This document shows, in pieces, positions 438 to 37,104 of a DNA stretch of 37,438 nucleotides (its first letter is position 1; each line of letters starts with the position of its first letter). Both the position numbers and the translations under genes were made by a program. The notes below the pieces were generated by a model, which was not told the origin of the DNA, made no database searches, and saw only the letters and a program-made list of their open reading frames with translations. The stretch lies in the IMG/VR virus record IMGVR_UViG_3300045988_172593, positions 1 through 37,438 of that record; one strand, given 5' to 3'. Source of the stretch: a virus.

Positions 438-745
438 GCCTTGAGATAGACGATTGACCATATCTCGTCGTTCGAGACCACGTCGCTGACCTGCACGATC
501 ATGACGCCGTTCCCGCCAAGCGCGCCGGTTATCGACGGACTTTTCCAAACGGAGTTGCGCCCGTAGGTCACGCCGGTCTCGTGCAGCGGCAACGGGCAGC
601 CGGTCAGCGTCGCGGTTATCCAATTGCACTGACCTGCGTTGATGCGTCCGGCCATATAGACCATGCCCGCGACCTCGACGCAGGTGTCCACGGAGATGCG
701 CTCGTCGGAAGAGCTCACGCTGTAGCTCTTCCGGGATACGGAATC
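434..745 (-). CDS. Promoterless C-terminal cassette B (silent, same orientation as the expressed gene).
   Basis: Minus-strand frame ...LLGDSVSRKSYSVSSSDERISVDT...IVYLKA*. It begins at the reverse-orientation site at 733..745. Confidence 0.65.
   Translation of the reverse strand, partial: DSVSRKSYSVSSSDERISVDTCVEVAGMVYMAGRINAGQCNWITATLTGCPLPLHETGVTYGRNSVWKSPSITGALGGNGVMIVQVSDVVSNDEIWSIVYLKA
733..745 (-). repeat. Shufflon crossover site, reverse orientation (GGGATACGGAATC on plus).
   Basis: It forms a perfect head-to-head inverted repeat with the site at 756..768, separated by a 10 bp spacer. Confidence 0.8.
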
Positions 746-755
746 ACCTAACAGG

Positions 756-768
756 CATTCCGTATCCC
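756..768 (+). repeat. Shufflon crossover site (CATTCCGTATCCC), forward orientation.
   Basis: Exact core copy. It reads HSVSR in the cassette C frame. Confidence 0.8.
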
Positions 769-1025
769 GCGAGTGGCCAATAGGACGCGTCGTATGGCTC
801 GCCGGCTCGGTCACGCCGAAAACCCTCGGGTTGCCCGGCACGTGGAAAAGCTACCGCTGGTCTCTCACGACCAAGGTCGGCTCGGTTCTCGACGTCAAGG
901 GTGGCAGGTACGACGTCGCCGGCGCAGAAGTGCAGATTTACTCGTACAACAATTCCGAAGCGCAAAGATGGCACATCTACGCGGAGGGTCCAGGCGTCGT
1001 CACGCTGTGGGTCAGAACGGCATAG
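756..1025 (+). CDS. Promoterless C-terminal cassette C, carrying a ricin-B-like (QxW) beta-trefoil-type motif.
   Basis: Open frame HSVSREWPIGRVVWLAGSVTPKTLGLPGTWKSYRWSLTTKVGSVLDVKGGRYDVAGAEVQIYSYNNSEAQRWHIYAEG...RTA*. The LDVxG...VQiy..nn..QrW pattern is lectin-like. Confidence 0.65.
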   Translation, partial: HSVSREWPIGRVVWLAGSVTPKTLGLPGTWKSYRWSLTTKVGSVLDVKGGRYDVAGAEVQIYSYNNSEAQRWHIYAEGPGVVTLWVRTA

Positions 1026-1038
1026 CATTCCGTATCCC
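1026..1038 (+). repeat. Shufflon crossover site (CATTCCGTATCCC), forward orientation.
   Basis: Exact core copy immediately after the cassette C TAG stop. Confidence 0.8.
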
Positions 1039-1289
1039 CGATTCAGATTCGCGGATGGAAGGTGCTGGAATCCGTCCAGACGAGCGGGTATCCGGGCGAG
1101 GCCAACCGAAAGATTTATATGAGATACGAGGGAACAGACTCTAGCTGGACGTTCATCCCTATCAGACTGGCGTGGTGCACGGTCGAGGAGATCACCTTCG
1201 ACAGCGGCGGCATAAAGCTGCTCGTCAATCCAACGTACGAGTCGTCGCATATTGGGGTGACTTTGCTAGCGCTCAAGCTCAGTAGATGA
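1026..1289 (+). CDS. Promoterless C-terminal cassette D.
   Basis: Open frame HSVSPIQIRGWKVLESVQTSGYPGEANRKIYMRYEGTDSSWTFIPIRLAWCTVEEITFDSGGIKLLVNPTYESSHIGVTLLALKLSR*. Confidence 0.65.
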   Translation, partial: HSVSPIQIRGWKVLESVQTSGYPGEANRKIYMRYEGTDSSWTFIPIRLAWCTVEEITFDSGGIKLLVNPTYESSHIGVTLLALKLSR

Positions 1290-1328
1290 TTCCCTTGAGC
1301 GCTAATAGGGATACGGCGCTACGGAGTG

Positions 1329-2162
1329 CTACGAGCGCGTCACCGGGAAGACCAACTGTCCGTAATAGTAGGCGTAGCTACTCCCTCCGTGGCTTACGTA
1401 GACGCTAATTTTCCCGGAGTTCTTGACCATGAGCTGCCCGCATATGGAGCTATCGCCCCTGTATCTGAGCGGCGCGATGTATGCGACTTCGTCGCTGCCC
1501 GTTTGGTCGGCGGCCGTGCTCCCTAGCGGTTTCATGCCGTTCGGGAGGGTTCCGATTTTACGATCAGAGTTTGCGACTGGCACGCTCAGGAAGTCGACGG
1601 AGACGATGCAGACGCCGCCCTCGACGCAGCACATGAGGCTGTTGCCGAGGCGGACCTGCTTTCGGGATACGGAAGCTTTAAGCTGGGATACGGAATCCCC
1701 GAGCGTGGCCAAAGGGGTGACGGGATTGAAAAGCTTGACGGGCGTGCCGACGGTGATGCCGTTGAGCGGCACGCGCCACAGCTTCAGGTCGTTGGTCGTT
1801 ACGGCGGGGTCCGCCGCCGTGCCGGTGGTCGGCGTGCCCTTGATGACCATCGGCTCGATGCTCTCGATGCCCTCGTTCGTCTTTGAGTAGCGCGCGACAA
1901 CCAGGTCGTTGCGCTTCTGGCCCTGCGTGCCAGATTGGATGGTGAGCGATGTGGCCGCCTGGTTCCAGAAGCGCTTGCCCCCCACCATGCCGACGCCGGT
2001 TCCGAGGGTGGCGCTGTTGGCGCTGGCCATCGTCAGCGCGAAGTCGTTGCCGTACTTGAGCACGCAGTCCGCCTTGCCGACGGTCGCCGTGTTGAGCGCG
2101 GCAAGGTCGTCGGAGCTGATGTGCTTGGTGCCGGTCATGCCGTCCACTATCTCGAATGCCAT
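1329..2162 (-). CDS. Receptor-binding / tail fibre protein with a shufflon-switchable C-terminus. The constant N-terminal part is about 1698..2162. The currently fused variable part is 1329..1684.
   Basis: A 277 aa ORF at the distal end of the tail module. Two reverse-orientation sites lie inside the CDS and encode ...LGDSVSQLKASVSRKQ... Confidence 0.8.
   Translation of the reverse strand: MAFEIVDGMTGTKHISSDDLAALNTATVGKADCVLKYGNDFALTMASANSATLGTGVGMVGGKRFWNQAATSLTIQSGTQGQKRNDLVVARYSKTNEGIESIEPMVIKGTPTTGTAADPAVTTNDLKLWRVPLNGITVGTPVKLFNPVTPLATLGDSVSQLKASVSRKQVRLGNSLMCCVEGGVCIVSVDFLSVPVANSDRKIGTLPNGMKPLGSTAADQTGSDEVAYIAPLRYRGDSSICGQLMVKNSGKISVYVSHGGSSYAYYYGQLVFPVTRS
1665..1676 (-). repeat. Shufflon crossover site, reverse orientation, one mismatch (GGGATACGGAAG).
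   Basis: A second in-frame site 9 nt from the site at 1685..1697. It encodes ASVS. Confidence 0.6.
1685..1697 (-). repeat. Shufflon crossover site, reverse orientation (GGGATACGGAATC). This is the junction between the constant region and the variable cassette.
   Basis: It encodes GDSVSQ within the expressed ORF. Confidence 0.8.
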
Positions 2163-2396
2163 TTACTGCTCCTTCGCGTTGGTCATGAACTGCTGGAACG
2201 CCGCATCGTGCTGCGCCGCGAGCTTCTTGTACTCGTCCGTGCATCCCTTGCACAAAAGCCTGCTCGCCTTGCTGCCGTACTGGTCGAACCGCTCGACCTC
2301 GCGCCAGTCTCCGGCGGCCGCGGCCCCCTGCTGCAGGTACGCGCTCTCGCCGCAGCGGTCGCACGTGTAGCGCGTGATGTTGTCGGTCTTTGCCAT
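2163..2396 (-). CDS. Small zinc-ribbon protein (CxxC...CxxC) in the tail-fibre cluster. It may act as a fibre assembly factor.
   Basis: 77 aa ORF MAKTDNITRYTCDRCGES...CKGCTDEY, immediately upstream of the RBP gene. Confidence 0.55.
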   Translation of the reverse strand: MAKTDNITRYTCDRCGESAYLQQGAAAAGDWREVERFDQYGSKASRLLCKGCTDEYKKLAAQHDAAFQQFMTNAKEQ

Positions 2397-2405
2397 ATCC
2401 TCTCC

Positions 2406-3089
2406 TTACTTCGTCCTCAGCCACGTGTACGGGCCTACGCTCGGCACCTGCTTCCACGTGCCGCCGACGCTGTTCGGGTTGAACGAGCCGTCGGTCTCCA
2501 CATACTCGCCGACCCGGTGCGCCATGAGCCACGTCGCGTTCGGGTCGGCGGTGTCGAGGATGTGCTGCCAGCCGCCCCATGCTGAAGCGGACGTGCCGCG
2601 GCGCCAGTACATGTCCGCCCCGACCACCGCCACCTGCTTCGGCAGCCCTCCGGAATCATCGTTCCATGGGGTCAGGGTCACGAGCACGGCGAACGTGTCT
2701 CCGGACAGCCCGATCGCGCTCGCGGTCTTGAACTCCGCGTATATGGACTTGGCGTGGCCGCTCATGTACCACGCCGGCGAGCTGTTCGCGTTTCTCGTGT
2801 CGGCTATGCTGCCGCCGCTCGGACCCTGCGGGCCGGTCGGGCCCTGCGGGCCGGTGGCCCCCTTGGGGCCCTGGATTCCCTGCGGGCCCTGAGCACCCGC
2901 CGGGCCGACGGGACCGGTGGGGCCCTGCTTGCCCGTGGGACCCTGCGGCCCCGTCGCGCCCGTCTCGCCCTTCGGCCCCTGCGGGCCGGTGGCGCCGGTC
3001 GCGCCCCTCGCGCCGGTCGCGCCCTGCGGGCCCGTCGCGCCCTTGTCGCCCTTAGGGCCCTTGATGTTGCCGACCAGGAACTTCGCCAT
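2406..3089 (-). CDS. Collagen-like repeat tail fibre protein.
   Basis: [26 protein letters not shown]... long GXY repeats followed by a globular C-terminal domain. Start ATG at 3089. Confidence 0.7.
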
Positions 3090-3091
3090 CG

Positions 3092-5227
3092 TCACCCACC
3101 TATCTCGTAGTAAAGCTCGCCTGTGGACGGGTCGTATGAGAGCGGCGGCGCGGCGCCGCCGTCGGCGACGTGCGACCAGAGGTTCCCGTCCGCGTCCACG
3201 GTGAGCGAGAAGAAGCCCGACAGGGGCGCGGTCACGCCCGAATCGCCGCGGTCGCCCTTCTCGCCCTTGGGGCCTTGGATGCCCTGCGGGCCGCGCTCGC
3301 CCTGCTCGCCCTTGACGCCCTGCGGCCCCGTCGCCCCGGTCGCGCCCTTCGCGCCAGTGGCTCCGGTCGCGCCGGCCGGGCCTTGCGGCCCTTGCGGGCC
3401 TGTCGCCCCCGTCGCTCCCTTCGGGCCTTGCGGGCCGGCGGCGCCGGCCGCGCCCGTCGCGCCGGCCGGGCCTTGCGCTCCGACCGGGCCTTGCTCGCCC
3501 CTCACGCCCGTGGCGCCGCTCATGTCCGCGATGAGCGAGTAGCCGCTCGCTCCCTTCACGTAAAGCTCTGCGTTGTGCGGGTCCTCCACGTCCGAGCCGA
3601 TGACTGCGAAGCCGCCGGCCTTCACGCCGTCGCTCTTCCACCCCGCCTGCATCGCCTCGTAGCTGGAGTAAACCTTCGAGATGGAGAAGCCCTCGCCCGT
3701 GTCGCCCTTGGGGCCTTGGATGCCCTGCAATCCCTGCGGGCCGCGCGGCCCCGTCTCGCCCTGGACGCCCTGTGGCCCCTGCTTTCCCTGGATGCCCTGG
3801 GGGCCCTGCTCGCCGGCGTCGCCCTTGGGTCCTTGCGCGCCCGTCGCGCCCTTCGGGCCTTGCGGGCCGATCTCGCCCTGCGGGCCGGCGTCGCCTTGCG
3901 GGCCTCGCAATCCCTGCGGGCCGCGCTCGCCCGTGGCGCCGGTCTCCCCCTTGGGGCCTTGGATGCCCGTCGCGCCCCGCGGGATGCCCAACGAGAGCGT
4001 CTTCTTCAGGCCTTCGCCGGAAAGCGACGCGGTGGCCTTCGCGCCCTCCGCGAGCGTGGAGACCTCGCCCATCGCGATGCCGGCCTGCGCCCATGTCTGG
4101 AGCGAGTTCGAAGCGTCGGTCGCGGCCTTTTCGGCCTTGGCCTCCACCGCCGCCAAAGCCTCGGAATCGACTTCCGCGCTGAAGGTGTAGTTGGCGAGCT
4201 TCAGGCCCTTGCCGGCCAGGTACGCGTGCCCGCCGCCGCCTTCGGCGGTCCCGCTGCTCGTCGTCTTGGTCGTGGTCTCGGAGCCGACCTCGTATGAGTA
4301 CGTGGCCACGCCGCGGCTGACCTTGACGACCTTCTTGGCCACCGTCGCCGCGACGGTGCGCCCGTGCGCGTTGTCGCGCGCCGAGATCACGTCGCCGACG
4401 TCCACGTCTATGTCGTCGTGGGCGTCCACCTCGACGCTTCCGGTGGTCTGGTACTCCGCGAGCTTCTTGCGGCCGTCCTCCTCCAGCTTGGCCTCGTCGG
4501 CGTTGCTGTAGTCGTACAGCGCCGCTATCTCGTCGACCCCGAACAGCGTCTGCTTGTGGGAGACGTTGCCCTTGGCGTCGGCGTAGAAGTGGACGACCGC
4601 GCGGTTCTCCAGCTCGCCCGTGCCGGCGCAGACCAGGTGGTTCACGCAGCGGTGAACCGAGGTCAGCGTGAAGTCCAGCAGGTCGGAGTCCACCTTGTTC
4701 GCATAGTCCGCCACGGGCGGCAGCGAAAGCTCGACCTTGCTCCCCTTGCGCCGCATCGCCAGCTTGCGGCCGTTGGCCTTGGCAAGCGCCTTGAGGCCGC
4801 TGTAGCCGTCGGTGAAGCGGTCGAAGGCGTAGCTCACCGATGCATCATCGGAAGCGGCCGAGAAGACGGCCGACAGCCCCATGCGGGAGATGAGCGAGGC
4901 GACGACGGCGCCAGCTTTGCCGCTCACGGACAGATAGCCGCTGCCGGAGTTCGGCAGCAGGCGCTTGCCCGCCAGGATGCCGTGCCAGGTTCGTCCCTTG
5001 CACGTGACGGCGCCCGCCGCATCGCGGCCTGCGTCGTAGCTCGACTCGTCGACGACGCCGCCGTACTCGCCGCCGTCGATGAACGCGAACTGCCCCTCCG
5101 CCGGGGCGGCATCGGCGGCGCACGTCAGCTCGAATGAGTTCTCGTCGCTGCCGAACGCCAGGTCCAGCTCGAAGTCCTGCAGCTCCCGGACGTTGCCGAG
5201 CTTGGAGTCGTAGACGACTAGGACCAT
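3092..5227 (-). CDS. Tail-associated protein (Tal-like) with two collagen-like (GXY)n segments.
   Basis: About 711 aa. The N-terminus is typical of siphovirus Tal proteins and lies downstream of Dit. Two long GPQGPKG... repeat blocks. Confidence 0.7.
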
Positions 5228-6048
5228 GGCGGCTCCCCCTCCTCCTCGTACCATGTGAGGTCGAACCCGAACGAGCGGTCCCACTCGACCTCGTGCACGC
5301 CCGGCGAAGCGGGCTGGAAGATGTACTCGCCGCTTCCCGATCCGTTTCCGCGGCGCGCCTTGGCGAACGCGTCGGTGGTCGAGCCGTCAGGCCCGACGAC
5401 GGTCACCGAGCGCGGCGTTGCCAGAGGGTCGACCACCATGTATCCGCCGTCGGGGACGGTCACGTCGACGCGGAACCAGTTCCCGTCGATGCGGATTGCC
5501 GGGTTGACGCACGGCCCGTAGACGATGAACCGAAGCGGAGCCGCGCCCCACCCCGCTATGTCGACGTATTTCCTTGTAGACGGAACGCCGAGGTCGTACG
5601 GCAGGTCGTACGGCAGGTCCAGGAACTCGCCGTCTCCCGAGGTCGCGGTAAGCTGCTCGAACGGGACCGTGTGGCCCTTGCGCCACACGCCGTCGAGCAG
5701 CACCACGGTAAGGTCGGCGGTGAAGAAGCCCTCTGAGACCGTATCGGCCTCCGACTCCATCACCATGCACCGCTGCGACCATCCGTCGACGCTCAACGTG
5801 CCGGCGACGCCTCTTGACACGTCGCGGTCGCACGCCCGGCGGAAAGCATCGGCCTTCGCGACGTCGGCGAAGAACGCCTTGAGCTTCGCCTTGCGCGCCT
5901 TCCTCGTCACGGAAGAGACCGACGCGTAGCCGATCGAGTACGACCATTCGCGGCTGAACAGGTCGCTCGGCCTGCCTACGTAGATGCCGTCGTTAAGGCG
6001 GTACGCATCGCCGCCGACGCCGGAGACGTACACGATGTCGCTACGCAT
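5218..6048 (-). CDS. Distal tail protein (Dit).
   Basis: 276 aa, located between the tape measure protein and Tal. Confidence 0.65.
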
Positions 6049-12401: not shown

Positions 12402-12731
12402 TCAGCCGTTTCTCAGCTCGTTCTCTATGATCGCCCGGTACTGTCCGATGTGGTTCTGCGCCGCCGGGCGCAGGTACGGCTGCTCCTTGTGGCGGCTCGT
12501 CCCCATCTCGACGTAGCGCGCATACTCGACGTTGGTCCCGATGTATACCGCCTTCGCGCCGTAGCCCGTCACGTGCGTGATGCTGTTGCGCAGGCGCCCC
12601 GTGTCGACCGGGCACAGCCGCTTGGCGTAGCCCTCAGCAACCAAGCCGACCTCCTCAAGCGCACGCCGGAGCGAGCTTTCGAACAGCTTCCCCCACTCGT
12701 CTGAGTTGTCCTCGTTCACGATGACGGTCAT
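12402..12731 (-). CDS. HK97 gp10-family phage protein.
   Basis: 109 aa with the ...PVDTGRLRNS...YARYVEMGT motif. Confidence 0.6.
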   Translation of the reverse strand: MTVIVNEDNSDEWGKLFESSLRRALEEVGLVAEGYAKRLCPVDTGRLRNSITHVTGYGAKAVYIGTNVEYARYVEMGTSRHKEQPYLRPAAQNHIGQYRAIIENELRNG

Positions 12732-13072
12732 GGGAGCATCCCCGTCATGTATTGGTCAAGCAGCCTGATGGCCGCGTCCGCCCCGTTGCACACGTACGCG
12801 CAGTAGCCGTTCTCGCGCAGCAGGGCCAGCCATCTCTGCTGGTACGCTGAAACCCTGCCGTTCTTCTTCGCCTTCATCTCGATGAACAGCCCGTGATAGC
12901 CGTATCTGGCCACCGGCACGCACAGGTCCGGCACACCGGGCCTGACGCCCTGCGCCTTGAGGTGCGCCGCCTCGGCCTTGTTGCGGTAGCCGCCGTTCGG
13001 GATGTGGAACACGGGGATTCCCTTGAGGTCGCAGTACTCCACAACCGCGCGCTGCTCCAACGCCTCGCTCAT
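12728..13072 (-). CDS. VRR-NUC domain nuclease.
   Basis: 114 aa. The motifs VVEYCDLKGIPVFHIPNGG...PDL...GLFIEMKAKKG...QQRW are VRR-NUC-like. Confidence 0.65.
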   Translation of the reverse strand: MSEALEQRAVVEYCDLKGIPVFHIPNGGYRNKAEAAHLKAQGVRPGVPDLCVPVARYGYHGLFIEMKAKKNGRVSAYQQRWLALLRENGYCAYVCNGADAAIRLLDQYMTGMLP

Positions 13073-13076
13073 GCGA

Positions 13077-13295
13077 TCACCAACCGTCTCCGTTTACAGC
13101 CGCATTCGCGCCGATATCGACCTGGTAGCCGTATGAGGCGATGCCGGGATTTCCAGGCGCGCCGAACGTGCAGCCGTCCTCGTGCGTGACCTCTTGCCCG
13201 GTTATGGTGCAGTACAAGGTTTCGGTGCCGGCAAAGCCGCAACCGATTCGAACGGCCGCCATGGAGCACGATATGCAGCAGATGATTTCCTTCAT
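13077..13295 (-). CDS. Small Cys-rich hypothetical protein.
   Basis: 72 aa ORF. Confidence 0.4.
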   Translation of the reverse strand: MKEIICCISCSMAAVRIGCGFAGTETLYCTITGQEVTHEDGCTFGAPGNPGIASYGYQVDIGANAAVNGDGW

Positions 13296-13335
13296 GGCTG
13301 CAATGATGGGCTATGCGTCACGCGTCGGTTTCAGG

Positions 13336-13370
13336 GCATGAAAAAGCCCCGCCAAAGCAGGGCCATGCTT
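13336..13370. terminator. Imperfect hairpin flanked by T/A runs (possible bidirectional terminator).
   Basis: GCATGAAAAAGCCCCGCCAAAGCAGGGCCATGCTTTT just after the stop of 13371..13598. Confidence 0.3.
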
Positions 13371-13598
13371 TTACTCCGGAAGGGCAAGTATCACGCTCTC
13401 GCAGAGCCTTCCGTAATCGTTCAGGCCGTCATCCGACAGCCCCTTGAGCTGCATTTCCTGCGACATCCTGTCGTCTATTTCGAAATATTGCTCATCGGTC
13501 AGGCGCTCAAAATCGCAAGGAAGCCCAAAGCATGAAAGCAGCTCCTCTTGCCGCTTCGTCAGAAAAACGGTTTCACCGTTCCTATTCGTCCAAGCCAT
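13371..13598 (-). CDS. Small acidic protein, a putative immunity protein for the MuF C-terminal toxin domain.
   Basis: 75 aa, acidic, lower GC than its surroundings. It lies immediately 3' of the MuF gene and overlaps it. Confidence 0.5.
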   Translation of the reverse strand: MAWTNRNGETVFLTKRQEELLSCFGLPCDFERLTDEQYFEIDDRMSQEMQLKGLSDDGLNDYGRLCESVILALPE

Positions 13599-14961
13599 AC
13601 TTCCTCCTTTCGCGCCTGCCGGTCTTGTACATCGTTATTATAACCCCGGTATCGGGGTTGACGACAACGGTGGCCGATGCGCCTACGAGCTTCTGGGCAC
13701 GCCGCCCCTGCAAATCGATCGTAGGCTCGAACGCGTGCAGCGGGTTCGCTATCGCGTCATCGACCTCGTAGCGCGTAAGTCCGCGCTCGGCCATCCTTTC
13801 CTCGGCGTGCTTGCTGACCAAAGCAGCTCGCCACGCTTGCTGCTGCTCGGACTTCTGCATCGTTCTGAACGCGTGGCCGCTGGTTCCGCTTGCCTTCAGA
13901 TGCTCAGAAAGCGCCTTGCGGCCCTGCGCCTCGGTCATGCCGCGCTTTTCAAGGTTCTTTTGCACGCTAGGCTGCTGCATGAACTCGCCCATCATGCGCC
14001 CGCTGCTGTCATGCCGGTAAACCGGCTTACCGGCCTTCCACTGCTCGTAGGTCATGCCCGGCGGGAGCCTGCTCCACCGCTCGGCGTCGTCCTGGTCTAT
14101 GCCGTCGATGGCCGCGACCAGCGTGCACCGGCAGTTGCATATCTCCGAGTACGGCCCCTGCGGGTCGCCGGGGAAGCGGCAGCCGTTCTCGAACGTCCCG
14201 GGGTCGGGCGCCTTGGCCTTGTCAAGCTTGCGGTGCGTGTGGCGCGTGCGCCCGTCGAGCGTGGCCTGCCACTCCTTCTGCATCTTGATGCCCATGGCTC
14301 GGGCCATGCCGTAGCTGTGCACGCGGCCCGCGTTCTCCGCTCCGGTGACCGCCGTGCGAGCCGTGCGCACCGCCGCCGCATAGTTGCTCCCGGTGACGCG
14401 CTGCACGCGCTTCGCAAGCTTGGGGATGGACTCGCCCAGCAGGACGCCCTGCGTCAGCTGCGAGGCCAGCAGCTTGCGGTTCCATGCCAGGTCCTTGGCG
14501 ACGTTCAGCGCCGGGGGCGCTATCAGCGCCTCGCCCGCCGTCAGCATGTGCTGGGCGGTGGAGGCGTCCATGAGCGAGAACGAAACGTCCAGCCCCGACG
14601 CCTCGCACACCTGCCAGCCGCCGTAGTTGGCGTTCTCGGCGTACACGTCGGGCAGCCTGCCGTTCAGCGCCGCCACGGCCACCTCGTTGGCGTTGGAATA
14701 CGCCTCGGCAACCTGGTCGAGCACCTGCTGGTAGCGCATGCCCGTCATCATCTGCGACCTGCGCCAGTCGGCGTACGCGCGTTCGCTTATCTTCCCGGCC
14801 TCAAGCTCCGCGCGCTTCTCGTCGTCGCGCTCCCGGAACTCCTCCAGGAACGCGTCCAGGTCCTTGCGCGCCTGCTGCTCGGCCTGCCCGTAGACGTCCG
14901 CGACCTCGGCCTCGAAGGCCGCGAGCTGGCCGTCGGCGTAGTCGTGCCCGTGGTCGCTCAT
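13582..14961 (-). CDS. Minor head protein of the MuF / SPP1 gp7 family, with a C-terminal toxin-like extension.
   Basis: 459 aa downstream of the portal gene. The C-terminal ~80 aa resemble DUF4258/RelE-like toxin modules of MuF polymorphic toxins: ...HAEERMAERGLTRYEVDDAIANP...VVVNPDTGVIITMYKT. Confidence 0.7.
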   Translation of the reverse strand: MSDHGHDYADGQLAAFEAEVADVYGQAEQQARKDLDAFLEEFRERDDEKRAELEAGKISERAYADWRRSQMMTGMRYQQVLDQVAEAYSNANEVAVAALNGRLPDVYAENANYGGWQVCEASGLDVSFSLMDASTAQHMLTAGEALIAPPALNVAKDLAWNRKLLASQLTQGVLLGESIPKLAKRVQRVTGSNYAAAVRTARTAVTGAENAGRVHSYGMARAMGIKMQKEWQATLDGRTRHTHRKLDKAKAPDPGTFENGCRFPGDPQGPYSEICNCRCTLVAAIDGIDQDDAERWSRLPPGMTYEQWKAGKPVYRHDSSGRMMGEFMQQPSVQKNLEKRGMTEAQGRKALSEHLKASGTSGHAFRTMQKSEQQQAWRAALVSKHAEERMAERGLTRYEVDDAIANPLHAFEPTIDLQGRRAQKLVGASATVVVNPDTGVIITMYKTGRRERRKYGLDE

Positions 14962-14964
14962 GCG

Positions 14965-16386
14965 CTACTCTTCCCCGGCTTCTTCGCCGTCCTCCTCGCC
15001 GACGGCGTTCTGCCGCAGCGCCGGGGGCAGCGCGGCCATCCTCTCGGCGGCCTCGGCGTCCTTCCGGCGCAGAATCTCGGCCACCTCGTCGGGGGTGACG
15101 TTCGGCAGCTTGCGCAGAACGGTCTCGTCGTCCAGGTACGCGGCCTCGGCCATGACGACCTCGACCTGTTCCTTGAGGTTGCTCACGCGGTTGCGCGTGA
15201 ACACCGGCGTGTCGACGATGCCCTGCAGAGCCAGCAGGTCCATGATGCCCTCGCGGATGTGGCGCTCGAACTCGTCGGCCTCCTCGTCCATCGGCTGGTA
15301 GGCCGCGTCTATGTGGTCGTTCGTGGCCCCTGAGGCGACGGTGTGCACGTCCAGCGCGCCGAAGTCCTCGTACATGTCGGCCTTGATGGTGGCCAGGACC
15401 TCCTTGCGCGCCGCGTACGGCACCTCCTGCACGTACGGCTTTATGTCGCCGCCGTCCTCGGTGTTGGCGGAGGCCACGTGCGTCAGCTTCAGGCGGTCGA
15501 TGTAGCGTTGCAGGTCGGCGTCGGTCATGCCGCCCGCGTTCTCGACAATCCAGTAGATCTCGGCGCAGTCCTGCACGTCGTTCGCCAGGCCGCTCTTGAT
15601 GAGGTCGTACGCGTCGATGCACTCGCGCAGCCCCACGAGCGTGCTCTGGTGCGCGTCGCTGCCCCAGATGGGCACGATGGGCAGGCGGCTGTAGTTCTCG
15701 GCGTCCACGGCCAGCTTCAGGCCGTCCGCCGGCACCTCGGAGTAGGTCACCTTGTAGGCGCGCTTCGGCTCGACCAGCGCCATGTCCGAGCCGTCCGCGT
15801 CGCCCGCCTTGTACACCGTGTAGCCGTCCTGCTCGTACAGCACGGCGTTGAGCGGATGGTACTGGTCCAGGCGCCAGAACCGGATGCCCGCCATCAGCGC
15901 GCCGGTCTGCTCGTCCCAGATGGGGGCGAACTCGGCCGCCGTGAACACGTCGATGTGGTCAAGGTTCCAGAACGGGAAGCTCACGCCGTGGATGAGGGCG
16001 TTGATGCCTATCTGCTTCACGTCGTCGTCGAATCGCGGCCCCAGCTTGGCCTTGGTCACGTCCTCGCCGCCCTCGCCGACGTCGACGAACGACACGCCCT
16101 TGCCCAGGCTGTACATGCACCGCTGGACGTTCAGGCGGCGGAAGAAGTTGCTCGCCATGCGCAGGCTGCTCGCCGTGAAGTCGCGCACCTCGACGCCCTG
16201 CGCCGTGAACAGCATCTTCGTGAACGCCGCGATGGTCTCGTTGCGCTGGCGGAAGTAGTTGTCGGCGCTGACCGCGTTGCGGTACATCTCGCTGCGCCGG
16301 TGCCGCTCCACGGCCTCGTCGACCCAGCCGGGCGTGCCGCCGTCGGCCAGCAGCTCGGCGTAGGTGATTATCGTGCTGGCTGTCAA
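14965..16386 (-). CDS. Portal protein.
   Basis: 473 aa with an acidic C-terminus, downstream of TerL. Confidence 0.8.
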   Translation of the reverse strand: MTASTIITYAELLADGGTPGWVDEAVERHRRSEMYRNAVSADNYFRQRNETIAAFTKMLFTAQGVEVRDFTASSLRMASNFFRRLNVQRCMYSLGKGVSFVDVGEGGEDVTKAKLGPRFDDDVKQIGINALIHGVSFPFWNLDHIDVFTAAEFAPIWDEQTGALMAGIRFWRLDQYHPLNAVLYEQDGYTVYKAGDADGSDMALVEPKRAYKVTYSEVPADGLKLAVDAENYSRLPIVPIWGSDAHQSTLVGLRECIDAYDLIKSGLANDVQDCAEIYWIVENAGGMTDADLQRYIDRLKLTHVASANTEDGGDIKPYVQEVPYAARKEVLATIKADMYEDFGALDVHTVASGATNDHIDAAYQPMDEEADEFERHIREGIMDLLALQGIVDTPVFTRNRVSNLKEQVEVVMAEAAYLDDETVLRKLPNVTPDEVAEILRRKDAEAAERMAALPPALRQNAVGEEDGEEAGEE

Positions 16387-16387
16387 C

Positions 16388-17587
16388 CTATCGTCTCCTC
16401 TTCTCGAACGGGCTTACGTACTCCTCGCGGCCCCTCCACATCCTCAGCGTGGCCACGCCGTAGCGCAGCGCGTCCATGAGGTGGTCGTCCTCCTTGACCG
16501 GGGCGTCGCCGCCCTTGCGAGCGTCCCACACGTAGCCCGCGAACTCCTTCGCAAGCTCCGGCAGGCAGTCCGCGATCTCGACCGTCCCGGCCTGCATGCA
16601 CGCGGCGGTCTCGCGGATGCCGTCCTCGACGGCGTTGCGCGCCTTGCGCACCGTCAGCCCGGCGCGGCGCATGGCCGCGTGGAAGCTCGTCGCGCTGGGG
16701 TCGATTATGAAAGGGGTGTCACGCGGCAAATCGCCGAGGAACGCCACCATGTCCGCCACGTAGTCGGCGTCGGTCTTCTGGTGGCCGGTGTCTCGGCCCG
16801 AGTAGCGGTACTCCTTGACAACGTGCCACGAGCGGCCGTCGCACGCCCACAGCAGCGCCGCGAAGGCGTTCTGCGTGCCGTAGTCGCAAGAGACCGCGTA
16901 GCGCGTCGCGGCGCCGTCCCACATCGGCTCGAACGCATCGGCGTAGCAGGGATAGACCAGGCCCTCCGCCTGCGTCCACAGGCCCTTGATGTAGCGGTCG
17001 TAGTACACGCTGCCGGCGTAGTCGGCCTCAAGCTGCGCCACCACCTCGGGCAGCAGAGCGCCGTCCCAGATGGTGTAGTCCTGTCGGTATATGTCGGTCC
17101 CCTCGGAATCGAGGAAGGCCTTGAACCAGTGGTTCGGGCTGTCGGGGTTGCACGTGCCGTCGAAGTGGCTGTGGGGGCAGCGCAGGCGCGATTTGAGCAT
17201 CTGGAAGACCGGCTCGGCCCACGTGGTCACCTCGTCGCCGTACACCCACTCGAACGTCGCGCCCTGAATCTTCGAGACGCTGTTGGACTTGTCCGCGCCC
17301 AGGCAGTAGACCTTCCTGCCGAAGATGTTCGCGGTGTTGTCCATGCGGATGCTGCCGACGACCTCCTCCGAGTAGAGCGCGCGCATCGGCTCCAGGATGT
17401 TGCGCTCCAGGGTCGAGCGCGTGTTGCCGATCATGACCAGCAGGCCCTCGCCTTTGGCCGCCATGATGCGCTGCGGGATGGTCACCGCTATGTCCACGTA
17501 CGATTTGCCGCTGCCCGTCGCGCCGCACTTGACGTTCCAGCGGTGCGTGCAATTCTGCAGGTACTCCTGCTGCATCCTGGTCAGCAT
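16388..17587 (-). CDS. Terminase large subunit.
   Basis: 399 aa with Walker A KCGATGSGKSY and a nuclease-domain C-terminus. Confidence 0.85.
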   Translation of the reverse strand: MLTRMQQEYLQNCTHRWNVKCGATGSGKSYVDIAVTIPQRIMAAKGEGLLVMIGNTRSTLERNILEPMRALYSEEVVGSIRMDNTANIFGRKVYCLGADKSNSVSKIQGATFEWVYGDEVTTWAEPVFQMLKSRLRCPHSHFDGTCNPDSPNHWFKAFLDSEGTDIYRQDYTIWDGALLPEVVAQLEADYAGSVYYDRYIKGLWTQAEGLVYPCYADAFEPMWDGAATRYAVSCDYGTQNAFAALLWACDGRSWHVVKEYRYSGRDTGHQKTDADYVADMVAFLGDLPRDTPFIIDPSATSFHAAMRRAGLTVRKARNAVEDGIRETAACMQAGTVEIADCLPELAKEFAGYVWDARKGGDAPVKEDDHLMDALRYGVATLRMWRGREEYVSPFEKRRR

Positions 17588-33016: not shown

Positions 33017-34162
33017 ATGGGAGCGAAGCTGACGCTAACGGTGTCGCGCATGGAGGGCGCCAGCAACGCCAAGTGCCGCCTGTGGCGCCTGCGCCTGTTC
33101 GTCGACGGCAAGCCCGCCAAGTCCAAGCGGTTCCACGGCACCTACGGCCAGGCCAAGGCCGCCGGGGACGACTTCAAGGCCGCCTACGCCGAGACCATGC
33201 GGCTGAGCGGCTACGACCCGGGCATGACGTTCGCCGAGTACGCCGAGCGGTGGCTGCAGAGGCGCAGGGACTCCGGGAGCTTCGAGAACCAGACCATCAG
33301 GGCCAACGCCGCGAAGGTCGACGGCCTGCGCCGCGTGATAGGCGACCTCAAGCTGAGCGAGATGAAGCGAACCGACGTCATAGACGCCCTCCTCAGCATA
33401 AAAGGAGGCGCCATCGGCGGAGGCGAGCTTATGAACTCGACCGTGCGAGGCTACCACACCGTGCTGAAGCAGATCATGGACGAGGCGGTACGCGACGAGC
33501 TGATACCCAAGAGCCCGGTCGACAACGTCAAGCCTCCGAAGTCCGACGCCCGCGAGAAGCACGCGCTGCCCTTCGACCGATACACGAAGCTCATAGGCGA
33601 CCTCACGAGCATGCGCGGAGACGCCCACGTCGTCGGCATCCTCCTCATTGCGCTGAACGGCCTGCGCCGCTCCGAGGCGGTGGCCCTCGAATGGGATGAC
33701 GACCTTGGAGACGGCCTTGCGGTGTTCGATTCCATCGAGGACATGTCCGGCGAGAAGAAGAAGACCAAATCCCCCAGCGGCAAGCGCATAGTCCCCATGA
33801 CCGCGGAGACGCGGAAGCTGCTCGACGAGTGGAAGCCCATGCAGGCGCTCATGCTGAGGTCGCGCGGAATCGAGCAGACCCCGCAGACCCCGTTGATAAC
33901 GAACGTCAAGGGCAGGAGGATGGCTGCGGACACGCTGTATCGCTGGTGGCGGAAGTTCGGGCCGACGATGTTCGGCGTCGACTGCACGCTGCATGAGCTT
34001 CGGCACACGTTCCTGACCTACCTCGCCAAAGACGGAGACGCCTTCGCGCTCAAGCGCATAGCCGGATGGTCGAAGATATCCATGGCGGACACGTACGTGC
34101 ACGCCGACGACGAGGCCGACCGCGCGGCCATGCGAGCGTTCGAGGATCGAATCGGCCGATAG
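33017..34162 (+). CDS. int: Tyrosine integrase (phage Int).
   Basis: 381 aa with an arm-binding N-terminus and catalytic motifs ...HELRHTF...Y. Confidence 0.85.
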   Translation: MGAKLTLTVSRMEGASNAKCRLWRLRLFVDGKPAKSKRFHGTYGQAKAAGDDFKAAYAETMRLSGYDPGMTFAEYAERWLQRRRDSGSFENQTIRANAAKVDGLRRVIGDLKLSEMKRTDVIDALLSIKGGAIGGGELMNSTVRGYHTVLKQIMDEAVRDELIPKSPVDNVKPPKSDAREKHALPFDRYTKLIGDLTSMRGDAHVVGILLIALNGLRRSEAVALEWDDDLGDGLAVFDSIEDMSGEKKKTKSPSGKRIVPMTAETRKLLDEWKPMQALMLRSRGIEQTPQTPLITNVKGRRMAADTLYRWWRKFGPTMFGVDCTLHELRHTFLTYLAKDGDAFALKRIAGWSKISMADTYVHADDEADRAAMRAFEDRIGR

Positions 34163-34485: not shown

Positions 34486-35541
34486 TTAAGCGGCTTGCAG
34501 GCTAAAGGTGGTGACGCGCGAGCCGTTGCCCGCGTAGTCGTCCCAGCTGCCGCCGGTGTCGGTCAGGTCGTGCATATTTGGCAGGCCGTTGACGTTGTAC
34601 TCCGCGACCAGCCAACCCGTCTTGTTAGGATTAGCCGTCTCGTAGTAGCAGCGCACCGCCGTGATGGGCGAGCCGTCGCCGGCGCAGCCGTACATCAGGT
34701 CACCCTTGTTGTAGCTATACACGGGGTCAAGCCAGCCGTTGGCTTCGGTGCACACCTGGTACCATCCAGGCATATCCACCGCCAGCCAGCGAATGGGATC
34801 GTAGCCGTTACCGGCAAACGTGTCGCCGAAGCCGCCCGTGTCGGTGTGGTCCACCATCTCCGGCATCCACCAGCCGCCGGAGGGGTCCGTGGACGCTGCG
34901 TAGGTGATGGCAACCTCGGACTGCGAGTAGTCCGGGTGCCAGCTTGTGCCGGACGTGTCACCGGAACCGGACGGGACATAGGTGCCGCCGATGTAGGCGT
35001 TGACCGCCGCCTTGAACTCGTCCCAGGAGCGGCCATACTCGGCGAAGTAACCGGTCGGGTCTGTGTGGTCGGTTCCGCCCCAAATCCACGCGCAGTCGTT
35101 GTGGCTGAGCAGGCGGTCGATGCCCCAGCCGCGAGAGTTGAGGTAGTCACCGGCCCAGGCCACGGCGTTGTCCCACTGGGCGCTGAAGTCCTCCCAGTTG
35201 GTCGCATGCGCCAGCTCGATGCCGACGGTGGCATAGTTGCCACCGCCGACGTGCCAGCACAGCGCCCAATCGGGCACCGTATGATAGACAACGGAGCCGT
35301 CCAACTCCATCACATAATGCACCGCGTAGGTGTCGTCGCGGCTCCAAAGCAGCGTGTGGTTGTAGGCACTCGCGCCCGGATTCGCGGTCTCGTGGATTAC
35401 CAGATAGCCCGCATCGTTGTATCCGTGGCCGTACGAGACCACATCCTCGACCTGCTCATACGCGAAGGCCGGCACGGACAGGCTCGCGGCCAGGGCCACG
35501 GACGCGATGACGGCCGTGAGCTTCGCCTTGATGCTAGTCAT
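34486..35541 (-). CDS. Endolysin: N-acetylmuramoyl-L-alanine amidase (amidase_2/PGRP) with an N-terminal signal peptide.
   Basis: Hydrophobic leader (LTAVIASVALAASLSVPAFA) and amidase_2 motifs. Confidence 0.75.
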   Translation of the reverse strand: MTSIKAKLTAVIASVALAASLSVPAFAYEQVEDVVSYGHGYNDAGYLVIHETANPGASAYNHTLLWSRDDTYAVHYVMELDGSVVYHTVPDWALCWHVGGGNYATVGIELAHATNWEDFSAQWDNAVAWAGDYLNSRGWGIDRLLSHNDCAWIWGGTDHTDPTGYFAEYGRSWDEFKAAVNAYIGGTYVPSGSGDTSGTSWHPDYSQSEVAITYAASTDPSGGWWMPEMVDHTDTGGFGDTFAGNGYDPIRWLAVDMPGWYQVCTEANGWLDPVYSYNKGDLMYGCAGDGSPITAVRCYYETANPNKTGWLVAEYNVNGLPNMHDLTDTGGSWDDYAGNGSRVTTFSLQAA

Positions 35542-36237: not shown

Positions 36238-37104
36238 ATGCTGTTTAGCGAAGCCGCGAAGATGTACATGGACGACAAGCAAAAGCGCCTGCGGGCAACG
36301 ACACTCGAAGGCTACGAGAGCGCGTTGAGATGCCACGTGCTGCCCGCCTGGGGAGCGCGCGAGATCGAGGGCATCACCTTCGAGGAGCTGCAGAAGTGGG
36401 TTGATGGCTTTGAGTTACCGGGAGCGGCGGAGAAGGCGTACAAGACGTTCCGGCAGGTGTACCGCTGGACAATCCGCCGCAGGCAGATACGCATCTGGGA
36501 TGCCACGCAAGGCGTGGAGCTACCCCAGAAGCCGACCGTGCGTCGTCCCACGCTAACGGCCAGCGAAGAGCGCGAGACGCTTCGCGGCATCGTGGGCCAG
36601 CCCTTCGAATCCGCCGTGCTCCTGGGCGCGGCCCTGGGGCTGCGGAGGTGCGAAGCGTGCGCCGTGCGCATCGAGGACGTGGACTGGCGCGGCGGTTGGG
36701 TGCATGTGCGGCGCGGCCTGCACGTGGTGCGCGGCGCGGAGGTCGAGACGGGCTGCAAGACGCGGCTGTCGGACAGGCGGCTCAAGCTGCCGCGCTTCGC
36801 CCTTGAGCGCCTGCGTGCCATCAGGGGCAACCGCCGGGCGGGTAGGCTGTGCGAATTGGATCCCAACGCCGTCGCCAGGCGGTTCCGCGCGTTTTGCCGC
36901 CGCCATGAGCTGCCGCACGTGCCTATGACGTGCCTGCGCCATTCGTGGGCAACTATATCGCTGGAGCACGGCGCGAGCATCGAGGACATAGCCGTGGCGC
37001 TGGGGCATACGACTGTGAACACCGCGATGGCGCATTACCTGCAGAGTTTTAGGTCAGTGGTTGCGCGCGCTAGCGACAGCTACGCAGCGGCGATGGCCGG
37101 GTGA
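36238..37104 (+). CDS. Small tyrosine recombinase, the candidate shufflon-specific invertase (Rci/FimB-like).
   Basis: 288 aa with R...H..R...Y motifs (LRHSWAT...GH...Y) and no arm-binding domain. Its stop codon overlaps the shufflon site at 37103. Confidence 0.75.
   Translation: MLFSEAAKMYMDDKQKRLRATTLEGYESALRCHVLPAWGAREIEGITFEELQKWVDGFELPGAAEKAYKTFRQVYRWTIRRRQIRIWDATQGVELPQKPTVRRPTLTASEERETLRGIVGQPFESAVLLGAALGLRRCEACAVRIEDVDWRGGWVHVRRGLHVVRGAEVETGCKTRLSDRRLKLPRFALERLRAIRGNRRAGRLCELDPNAVARRFRAFCRRHELPHVPMTCLRHSWATISLEHGASIEDIAVALGHTTVNTAMAHYLQSFRSVVARASDSYAAAMAG

Follow-up and report, generated by a model that had tools for sequence, protein, structure and literature searches.

Among its head-morphogenesis genes, a temperate Coriobacteriia phage probably (we put it at about 80%) encodes a MuF polymorphic toxin together with its cognate immunity protein. 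The window, i.e. the whole stretch of viral DNA that was analysed (37,438 nt), contains both genes on the minus strand, as ORFs of 459 aa (13582..14961) and 75 aa (13371..13598). MuF toxins were predicted between 2012 and 2017, and few of them have been tested. In a survey of such toxins, Jamet 2017 (PMC5576092) found MuF polymorphic toxins of temperate phages, mostly in Firmicutes. Domains of the BECR fold on MuF have likewise been described already, and the present locus is a further example of both. It is a compact pair of the predicted RNase type (78 + 75 aa) and comes from a Coriobacteriia phage, a group that is under-represented among the MuF toxins surveyed. What is new beyond the initial annotation of this DNA, which had proposed a toxin/immunity pair, is the existence of orphan immunity copies and a codon-constrained TATAAT box in the 3' end of the toxin gene. 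The features of the locus are collected in Table 1.

Table 1. Features of the MuF toxin-immunity locus (window positions)
Feature	Position	Strand	Remarks
Terminase gene	16388..17587	-	upstream of portal
SPP1-type portal gene	14965..16386	-	directly upstream of MuF gene
MuF-family minor head protein gene, toxin carrier	13582..14961	-	459 aa; Pfam and PHROG matches
Pfam Phage_Mu_F core domain (aa 166-281)	14119..14466	-	55.3 bits against a cut-off of 29.6
Whole exchangeable cassette (linker, toxin domain and immunity gene)	13364..14029	-	replaced in L002 and L003; foreign composition
Linker/pre-toxin region (aa 311-381)	13819..14031	-	between two recombination junctions, ~aa 310 and aa 381
C-terminal toxin domain (aa 382-459)	13585..13818	-	DUF4258; colicin-E5-like BECR fold; predicted metal-independent RNase
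Candidate catalytic residues	H385 (13807..13809), R393, T447 (13621..13623)	-	conservation and analogy
Sigma-70-like promoter candidate, TCGTCA-16 nt-TATAAT	13637..13664	-	in the last codons of the toxin
Shine-Dalgarno AGGAGG for the immunity gene	13603..13608	-	within toxin CDS, 4 nt before small-ORF ATG
Putative cognate immunity gene	13371..13598	-	75 aa, pI 4.25; overlaps toxin 3' end by 17 nt
Terminator-like hairpin and T-run	13345..13364	-	downstream cassette boundary

The toxin carrier is a MuF minor head protein of a temperate phage

In a Pfam search the 459-aa protein matches Phage_Mu_F (PF04233) with E = 1.3e-14, and it also matches PHROG minor head protein and head morphogenesis families, with E-values down to 1e-27. 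Genes on the minus strand run in the order terminase, portal, MuF, which places the MuF gene immediately after the portal gene in the head/packaging module. SPP1 gp7 is present in few copies in the capsid and is located at the portal. The window also contains lysogeny genes (a CI-like repressor with HTH and Peptidase_S24 domains, KilA-N and two tyrosine integrases) as well as an amidase. The element is a temperate, siphophage-like virus from gut Coriobacteriia (Eggerthellaceae-like), and the conserved N-terminal ~310-380 aa of the carrier constitute its MuF minor head protein.

This arrangement resembles that of the MuF toxins of Jamet 2017, in which a temperate phage encodes, directly after the portal, a protein with MuF at its N-terminus and a variable toxin domain at its C-terminus, immediately followed by an ORF of <150 aa. 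Unlike those mostly Firmicutes toxins, the carrier here is of the MuF1 type (PF04233) and belongs to a high-GC phage of Actinomycetota (Coriobacteriia). The toxin-bearing protein would be packaged in virions and ejected into the recipient cell, by analogy with the MuF family (PMC5576092, PMC5512222).

The C-terminal tail is predicted to be an RNase of the BECR fold

The initial annotation gave the MuF protein an extension of about 90 aa. There is indeed a tail beyond the MuF domain, but the toxin proper comprises only ~78 aa (382-459) and is preceded by a linker of ~70 aa, which is common to some relatives bearing other tails. The proposed identity of the tail, a toxin-like DUF4258 domain, held up, with both the Phage_Mu_F and DUF4258 matches above their Pfam cut-offs. 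DUF4258 (PF14076) is found at aa 383-445, with scores of 25.7 bits (whole protein) and 28.4 bits (tail alone) that lie just above the cut-off of 25; the match is full-length (profile positions 2-70 of 71). Similarity to Colicin_E5 in Pfam is sub-threshold (E = 0.1). Searches of NCBIfam and PADLOC gave no match for the tail, and a PDB sequence search with toxin profiles (A1, A3) returned chance matches only and detected no relative.

When an alignment was supplied to structure prediction, the 78-aa tail was modelled confidently as a BECR RNase fold like that of colicin E5 and CdiA-CT, a compact alpha/beta structure in which N-terminal helices precede an antiparallel sheet. A single-sequence AF2 model of the last 101 aa had a pLDDT of 51 and was discarded. 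The best structural neighbour is PDB 7VD7, which is known by its deposition title and for which a literature search yielded nothing relevant. Other neighbours include colicin E5 and the CdiA-CT of E. coli NC101, both of them tRNA-specific nucleases; an activity like that of colicin E5 would cleave tRNA Tyr, His, Asn and Asp at the anticodon. These matches agree with a preprint (bioRxiv 10.64898/2026.08.28.747851) that places DUF4258 within the colicin-like BECR group. Sequence similarity of the tail to the toxins of the colicin E5/ImmE5 and CdiA-CT/CdiI (NC101) pairs is marginal, and the vehicles differ: a phage capsid protein here, as opposed to the translocation domain of colicin E5 or the type V secretion filament of CdiA.

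Every homolog possessing the N-terminal helix retains H385, and T447 does not vary; as a set of conserved residues, His385, Arg393 and Thr447 resemble the BECR active-site pattern given in Iyer 2017 (PMC5512222). On grounds of conservation and analogy, we regard these three as candidate catalytic residues. The last 78 aa would then act as a colicin-E5/CdiA-CT-like RNase (DUF4258), with activity and target as predicted from the fold, and toxicity of the tail would be expected from what is described for the MuF family (PMC5576092, PMC5512222).

Relatives of this tail occur on other MuF proteins. The MuF2 protein of Streptococcus pyogenes prophage 315.4 ends in a homolog with 42% identity; this prophage is listed as 'Cter-Tox' in Table S1 of Jamet 2017 (PMC5576092), and SF370.1 is another MuF2 example. 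DUF4258 is not named in the text of that study or in the supplements searched. According to Iyer 2017 (PMC5512222), PBECR domains form six clades, occur fused to MuF or portal proteins as well as in solo versions in phages, and are predicted to be packaged and injected. The experimentally tested MuF toxins that our literature search found are (p)ppApp synthetases (PMC12226406, PMC10083569); it found no pair like the present one, with an RNase on MuF and its immunity protein, that had been tested experimentally.

Linker, toxin and immunity gene form an exchangeable cassette

In protein comparisons, similarity to MuF proteins with other tails extends as far as aa 309-311 or aa 381. The former junction is also evident at the nucleotide level, where identity to L002, a near-identical phage, ends at window position 14030. 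In L002 and in a second relative, L003, the segment 13364..14029 is exchanged for an ADP-ribosyltransferase tail and a 54-aa ORF, while the flanks are 97% and 95% identical, respectively. The 120 closest MuF proteins end in tails of at least 13 unrelated classes, with ADP-ribosyltransferase (PF03496), PF15542 and PF15644 among the alternatives. Relatives that are 87-94% identical in the N-terminal part bear different tails, some of them short; the tail is therefore not an integral part of MuF. No homolog of the 75-aa ORF is present where the tail differs.

The cassette also differs from its surroundings in composition. Its GC content is 0.58, compared to 0.70 in the N-terminal part of the MuF gene, and its GC3 is 0.64-0.77, compared to 0.95. 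By these measures the cassette is foreign to the backbone of the phage. Recombination between MuF genes exchanges linker, toxin and immunity gene as a unit.

C-terminal extensions to which no function has been assigned are common among MuF proteins (Jamet 2017, PMC5576092), and the 75-aa ORF belongs to no database family. Both facts would suit another account, in which the tail extends MuF as an ordinary structural part and the ORF is an unrelated moron or a spurious prediction. This account is contradicted by the block replacement in a near-identical phage, by strict co-occurrence of tail and ORF across unrelated carriers, by dN/dS values far below 1 and by the existence of fusions and a toxin fold, and we regard it as very improbable.

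Tail and small ORF are strictly linked

Single-sequence scans of IMG/VR with the tail or the small protein had returned nothing, and the database was scanned with alignments. A homolog of the small ORF lies directly downstream in all of the tail-retrieved loci that have room for one (55/55), and no further homologs of it were found among 5,616 ORFs. The collection amounts to roughly 30 distinct toxin-immunity pairs. The carriers of the tail, classified by Pfam (a narrow HMM of the MuF N-terminus had missed those of the MuF2 type), are diverse. They include MuF1 and MuF2 proteins, a 1162-aa protein and solo proteins of 148-179 aa, which are encoded between terminase and portal. Between loci L014 and L088, identity is 49% in the N-terminal part, 89% in the tail and 96% in the immunity protein, showing that tail and immunity gene travel together across MuF backbones. 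In two proteins, P0145 and P0183, toxin and immunity protein are fused in frame. The block swap, the diversity of tails, the strict linkage, the fusions and the foreign composition together argue that tail and small ORF constitute a toxin/immunity cassette. With dN/dS of 0.05-0.17 for the small ORF added to this list, the pairing put forward in the initial annotation is well borne out. The outcomes that it had listed as refuting it were all checked, and each turned out otherwise.

Toxins with a DUF4258 (PF14076) domain, also named Ntox49, are known from type II toxin-antitoxin systems (Gerdes 2025, PMC11980606; bioRxiv 10.64898/2026.08.28.747851), which raises the alternative that such a toxin, of the RelE/ParE superfamily, was fused to MuF by chance and acts within the lysogen, serving to maintain the prophage or to abort infection, rather than being delivered. 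According to Gerdes 2025 (PMC11980606), DUF4258 modules are small two-gene operons in which the antitoxin comes first, sometimes fused to MqsA-type antitoxins. Here, in contrast, the toxin does not stand alone but is covalently fused, as the tail of a 459-aa protein, to a virion morphogenesis protein within the late head module, and the inhibitor gene follows it instead of preceding it. Pfam and NCBIfam searches detected no HTH, RHH or other DNA-binding domain in the 75-aa protein. The ADP-ribosyltransferase and other polymorphic-toxin tails that close MuF relatives carry at the same junction are the behaviour of a polymorphic toxin rather than of a toxin-antitoxin system. The solo versions, too, are located between terminase and portal. 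We consider this alternative improbable.

The small ORF is a conserved gene and defines a putative immunity family

With a pI of 4.25 and a net charge of -9, the 75-aa protein is acidic; its gene has a GC content of 0.52, compared to 0.65 for the window, with a GC3 of 0.64, compared to 0.95 for backbone genes. Its acidity, its lower GC and the overlap with the MuF gene are as the initial annotation had them. It has 19 close homologs and a dN/dS of 0.05-0.17, and given this and its strict linkage to the tail, the ORF is a real gene under purifying selection. Its family comprises 69 clusters at 50% identity, nearly all of them 54-94 aa in length. One member, P0192, is a eukaryote-like EGF-repeat protein of 752 aa with nine matched stretches; this match is spurious, and the count is 68 once it is excluded.

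No family for the 75-aa protein was found in Pfam (E<=1), NCBIfam, PHROG or PADLOC, even at permissive E-values, nor any match to described immunity families (Pfam Imm*, colicin immunity or CdiI), and a PDB sequence search with the immunity profile (A2) gave chance matches only. We define it here as a putative, previously unnamed immunity family. By analogy with the MuF family (PMC5576092, PMC5512222), its members would confer immunity, and while virions are being assembled the 75-aa protein probably keeps the RNase of the producing cell inactive by binding to it. A primary role as a chaperone or assembly factor was rejected, as intact copies under selection persist without the toxin or head genes. 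In the available part of Iyer 2017 (PMC5512222), counter-defence effectors are the focus and a dedicated downstream immunity gene is not emphasised, whereas here the immunity partner is the best-supported feature.

Expression signals around the small ORF

All paired loci retain the AGGAGG sequence ahead of the small ORF, and the 75-aa protein would be translated from this ribosome-binding site of its own. About 39 nt upstream of its ATG lies the promoter candidate, which matches the consensus at 10/12 positions. Its TATAAT hexamer is one of two in the 37.4-kb window and is encoded by a rare codon choice (GTT-ATA-ATA). The hexamer is kept in 8/8 paired loci, although neighbouring synonymous sites vary. 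Judged from its sequence, the box may act as a promoter; the host belongs to Actinomycetota, in which promoter rules differ somewhat from those of E. coli. Such an embedded element would enable expression of the immunity gene without late transcription, e.g. in lysogens.

A hairpin with a T-run follows the small ORF (13364..13345), as had been noted initially. Its predicted stability is -18.9 kcal/mol and exceeds that of shuffled controls to a modest degree only (z-score -1.97). The hairpin is part of a 63-bp island (13301..13363), which is 86% identical to L002 6400..6462 despite the different cassette.

Being terminator-like and adjoining the end of the immunity gene, this hairpin would sit inside the expected late operon, an observation that counts against the best explanation.

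Host chromosomes and other mobile elements carry orphan immunity genes

Copies of the immunity gene lacking the toxin are found, under purifying selection, in host chromosomes and in other mobile elements. Senegalimassilia and Coriobacteriaceae MAGs carry a copy adjoining recQ and a decayed VRR-NUC stub, and further copies reside in a satellite-like element with a VapE primase and in an HTH_17/AAA_14 island. That such genes are kept under purifying selection suggests that the domain is harmful to recipients, and hence that its toxicity is real, although this fits a weapon and a host-takeover function alike.

In the latter case the RNase would be injected as a host-takeover or counter-defence effector that might attack specific host tRNAs, mRNAs or CRISPR RNAs just as infection begins, and the small protein would be no more than a safety catch for the producer cell. 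Iyer 2017 (PMC5512222) proposes such a role where BECR domains are fused to MuF or portal proteins, structural neighbours such as colicin E5 and the CdiA-CT of NC101 cleave tRNA specifically, and the cassette is housed in a protein thought to accompany the DNA. As an account in its own right this is unlikely; it is compatible with the polymorphic toxin-immunity reading, from which it differs in the biological pay-off alone.

Taking the locus as a polymorphic toxin with its immunity gene, we suggest, tentatively and with the odds somewhat against it, that the latter is an independently expressed, circulating antidote to a virion-delivered RNase, maybe with a promoter of its own. Lysogens would then be immune to the toxin of sibling virions, and bacteria and mobile elements would retain the antidote alone. 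If this is true, comparative genomics would for the first time have furnished evidence that MuF toxins work in trans, on recipient cells, and that bacteria and rival mobile elements counter them with orphan immunity genes. Orphan copies and the embedded promoter candidate make delivery in trans directly testable, and nature supplies controls in the near-identical phage with an ADP-ribosyltransferase cassette, the orphan immunity genes and the natural fusions.

One homolog of the small ORF, P0138, had appeared to follow an Ntox50-type MuF protein, P0050. This pairing was rejected as a coincidence, P0138 being an unrelated orphan locus.

The MuF tail as an exchangeable module

The initial annotation had described a MuF protein with a C-terminal toxin-like domain, a downstream acidic immunity-like gene and a hairpin after it, and both ORFs lie where it had placed them, with the same sizes and overlap and followed by the terminator-like hairpin (see table). 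Searches against Pfam place Phage_Mu_F at MuF aa 166–281 (55 bits) and DUF4258, the family suggested for the tail, at aa 383–445, with scores of 25.7 bits for the whole protein and 28.4 bits for the isolated tail (gathering score 25). A sub-threshold Colicin_E5 match covers the same residues as DUF4258, and PHROGs labels the 459-aa protein a minor head / head morphogenesis protein. The small protein is indeed acidic (pI 4.25, net charge −9) and its gene lower in GC (0.52 vs 0.65 for the window); AGGAGG lies 4 nt before its ATG, and no Pfam domain was found in it.

Coordinates of features in the window and in retrieved comparison loci (L handles)
Feature	Locus	Position	Strand	Remark
MuF gene	window	13582..14961	-	459-aa ORF
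Small ORF	window	13371..13598	-	75 aa; 17-nt overlap with MuF ORF
Promoter candidate, TCGTCA-16 nt-TATAAT	window	13664..13637	-	consensus scan; within toxin's last codons
Terminator-like hairpin	window	13364..13345		with T-run; -18.9 kcal/mol, modestly better than shuffled sequence (z -1.97)
63-bp island	window	13301..13363	-	86% conserved between phages with different toxin-immunity cassettes
Cys-rich ORF (MKEIICCISCSMAAVRIGCGF...)	window	13077..13295	-	72 aa; between terminator and VRR-NUC
VRR-NUC nuclease and HK97 gp10-like tail-completion/neck protein genes	window	12402..12731, 12728..13072	-	between MuF and scaffold/major capsid
Tyrosine integrase genes (two)	window	33017..34162, 36238..37104	+	near one end of window
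Amidase gene	window	34486..35541	-	between the integrase genes
Displaced small-ORF/MuF-fragment arrays	L009; L010; L015	5001..6361; 2073..3433; 4001..5970		
Homolog of Cys-rich ORF	L004	9625..9822		65-aa gene
BppU_N-like and 75-aa acidic ORF insertion	L082; L088	710..2631; 706..2631		
Solo toxin and immunity homolog (example)	L044	3764..4454		

The tail is a separate module. Among the 120 best MuF homologs, relatives 87–94% identical over the first 68–78% of the protein have other C-termini, including an ADP-ribosyltransferase (PF03496), PF15542 and PF15644. A BLAST search with the last 110 aa recovers the DUF4258 tail in just 11 of these 120. In ∼27 others, BLAST similarity ends abruptly at ∼aa 381, two residues ahead of the start of the DUF4258 match. 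Clustering of the sequence beyond the end of N-terminal similarity gave at least 13 unrelated tail classes among these 120, with junctions concentrated at ∼aa 309–311 and aa 381; some relatives have little or no tail. A tail conserved as an integral part of MuF, which the initial annotation had named as refuting, is not what these relatives show.

A near-identical phage with an ADP-ribosyltransferase cassette (L002/L003) has terminase, portal, VRR-NUC, gp10-like, scaffold and capsid genes equal in length to those of the window, with nucleotide identity of 97% down to window position 14030 and 95% from 13072 onward. There, an ADP-ribosyltransferase tail and a 54-aa ORF stand in place of window 13364..14029; hence, the replaced unit comprises linker (aa 311–381), toxin domain (aa 382–459) and small ORF together. 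Between the two flanks, only the hairpin-containing 63-bp island is common to both phages, and it marks the downstream recombination boundary. The cassette is compositionally foreign, with a GC3 of 0.64 in the small ORF and 0.77 in the toxin domain, compared to 0.95 in the MuF N-terminal part, portal and capsid.

Linkage of the small ORF to the toxin domain

Linkage was examined both ways, from the tail alone and from the small ORF. A tail-only, alignment-based scan of IMG/VR retrieved 56 loci, with tails 35–63% identical to that of the window. A narrow small-ORF profile matched the ORF directly downstream (offset −46 to +6 nt) in 45 of the 56. A broader profile added L029, plus L032, L033, L041, L042, L071, L072 and L078 (E 1.7e-5 to 3.7e-7); it was built without the test cases, and the downstream ORFs of the latter seven loci served as independent tests. 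This profile had no further match among 5,616 ORFs, and one leftover tail locus stops at a contig edge. Tail carriers in these loci are MuF1, MuF2 (Phage_min_cap2), a 1162-aa protein, and solo proteins of 148–179 aa that have an N-terminal DUF7211 motif and are encoded between terminase and portal. The carrier thus varies, whereas the pair is conserved.

Viewed from the small ORF, the gene directly follows MuF-DUF4258 in eight contexts (the window, L001, L014, L079–81, L082–84, L085–87, L088–89, and the protein pair P0134 + P0046, a context inferred only, as both come from 1,611-bp contigs), and it is missing from the near-identical phage with a different tail (L002/L003). Tail and small ORF diverge together, independently of the backbone; between L014 and L088, identity is 49% in the N-terminal part, 89% in the tail and 96% in the small ORF. 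Toxin domain and small protein are also naturally fused in frame in two proteins, P0145 from a high-GC and P0183 from a low-GC lineage. Deposited phages with the same tail (Flavonifractor phage Chenonceau; Streptococcus pyogenes prophages 315.4, phiNIH1.1 and Javan488) have an annotated hypothetical ORF that overlaps the MuF stop and aligns full-length with the window's small protein.

Homologs of the small ORF form 19 clusters (71–91% identity). Pairwise dN/dS among seven paired copies is 0.05–0.17 (dS 0.35–2.6), indicating that the ORF is protein-coding and under strong constraint. Linkage, constraint and fusions form the pattern that a toxin with a cognate immunity protein would be predicted to show, and the proposal that this gene is a plausible immunity partner gains from its conservation directly downstream of the tail across changing carriers.

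The immunity family is small and unnamed: 1.84 billion representatives contain 69 clusters (50% identity), nearly all of 54–94 aa; one of these, P0192, is a spurious EGF-repeat match. Genome matches to the small ORF occur solely in Coriobacteriia MAGs (Eggerthellaceae, Ellagibacter, Senegalimassilia and Coriobacteriaceae) from human gut samples, several from Hadza data sets, which fits the window's 65% GC. In P0185 (208 aa) and P0202 (243 aa), an immunity-like domain lies C-terminal to an unrelated N-terminal region of ∼130–160 aa that matches nothing in Pfam. Each may represent a fusion with a further immunity domain or with an adaptor domain. In low-GC IMG/VR phages (L034–L070), the solo toxin is followed by a 67-aa immunity homolog, the pair being inserted between large terminase and portal rather than on MuF. 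DUF7211 is a 25-aa Pfam family, and the short motif on solo toxins could be a capsid-targeting signal.

Orphan copies of the putative immunity gene and a promoter-like element

Several small-ORF homologs, 62–81% identical, have no adjoining toxin. Those at L004–L008 (P0136, >44 contigs) share an island near leuA with an HTH_17 protein and an AAA_14/DUF4143 ATPase. At L011–L013 (P0129, at least 28 contigs), the neighbours are a VapE-like primase and an RHH protein, a satellite-like setting. In L016–L019 (Senegalimassilia and Coriobacteriaceae MAGs), the orphan follows a RecQ-like helicase gene, a call inferred from helicase-motif sequence rather than a profile; L016 and L019 retain nearby a truncated VRR-NUC stub of only the first 32–33 aa. 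No toxin-tail coding sequence was detectable at any of these loci. A recognizable remnant of the toxin's last codons (CAGGCGCGAAAG...) persists upstream of the small gene in L004–L008 and L016–L019, which makes these orphans, at least, derivatives of toxin-immunity cassettes. Orphan copies are under purifying selection, with dN/dS of 0.11–0.20 among four Senegalimassilia copies and 0.11 between the other two groups.

L009, L010 and L015 are arranged differently: downstream of the small ORF come a truncated MuF remnant covering only aa ∼214–381, joined to an unrelated tail, and then a further small ORF. This layout resembles the displaced 'orphan' CT/immunity arrays of CDI and Rhs loci. The unrelated tail has no Pfam match, the next ORF is 67–79 aa, and the arrays sit in decayed prophage, where genes for a DEAD helicase, an HMA protein and CRISPR-Cas are neighbours. 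Orphan immunity genes typify polymorphic toxin systems. Their presence here implies that the predicted RNase is hazardous to cells not encoding the toxin, which lends indirect support to toxin delivery in trans.

The promoter candidate lies ∼39 nt upstream of the immunity ATG. Its TATAAT, one of just two in the 37.4-kb window, arises from Val-Ile-Ile written GTT-ATA-ATA, a choice with probability ∼0.002 given the phage's codon usage (GTT, 10/158 Val codons; ATA, 16/87 Ile codons). The hexamer is kept in all eight paired loci examined (seven distinct; MuF N-terminal parts 48–94% identical), with adjacent synonymous positions varying; L085 and L086 have ATC as the second Ile codon, a change at the single position outside the hexamer. 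In the Senegalimassilia orphans, the equivalent site reads TACAAT, and the box is absent from the more distant pairs L020–L022. Independent transcription of the immunity gene is considered plausible, though unproven.

Relation to known MuF toxins

In the definition of Jamet et al. 2017 (PMC5576092), a MuF polymorphic toxin combines a MuF domain encoded after the portal with a variable C-terminal toxin; 89% have a small downstream ORF, and the carriers are temperate phages, chiefly from Firmicutes. The window locus shows all testable defining features of this family and neither feature of a classical type II TA module (stand-alone toxin, upstream DNA-binding antitoxin), and hence belongs to this already known class. 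The MuF2 tail of S. pyogenes prophage 315.4, flagged 'Cter-Tox' in Table S1 of that study, is 42% identical to the window's tail; DUF4258 is not mentioned in its text or in the supplements searched. Iyer et al. 2017 (PMC5512222) reported MuF and portal proteins that carry BECR ('PBECR') RNase domains and predicted that these are injected. The experimentally characterized MuF toxins found in the literature are (p)ppApp synthetases (PMC12226406, PMC10083569).

We put at roughly 80% the probability that the locus encodes a MuF-borne BECR RNase toxin with its cognate immunity gene; domains, cassette swap and toxin–small-ORF linkage all sustain the initial reading as a polymorphic toxin/immunity pair. 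Virion delivery, an RNA target and promoter activity are predicted for the cassette. The toxin class itself is known, and this well-supported member of it comes from an under-sampled host clade and has an immunity family without a name. For experiments on what MuF toxins do, the locus is a good starting point, given its natural cassette swap, strict linkage across carriers, orphan immunity genes and codon-constrained promoter box.

Gene neighbourhood

The minus-strand gene order is small terminase-like HTH, large terminase, SPP1-type portal, MuF, 75-aa ORF, 72-aa Cys-rich ORF, VRR-NUC, HK97 gp10-like, scaffold and major capsid. The window also codes for a CI-like repressor (HTH + Peptidase_S24), KilA-N, two tyrosine integrases and an amidase, indicating a temperate phage or prophage; the two integrases near one end may point to a pair of integrative elements, either side by side or one inside the other. 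A terminator placed amid late head genes, as the hairpin would be, is hard to explain. VRR-NUC and gp10-like genes ahead of the capsid genes, not after, are an unusual order, kept in all relatives examined (L001, L002, L079).

The slot between immunity gene and VRR-NUC appears variable. The Cys-rich ORF had no match in any profile library searched and is lacking in two near-identical phages, L002 and L079, whose VRR-NUC gene comes straight after the hairpin; L001 has YjcQ and tiny ORFs in this slot. L004 and L008 carry a 47%-identical homolog of the Cys-rich ORF in the island that also holds their orphan immunity gene. L082 and L088 have an insertion between portal and MuF-DUF4258, consisting of a gene for a BppU_N-like 561-aa protein and a 75-aa acidic ORF that has no relation to the immunity family.
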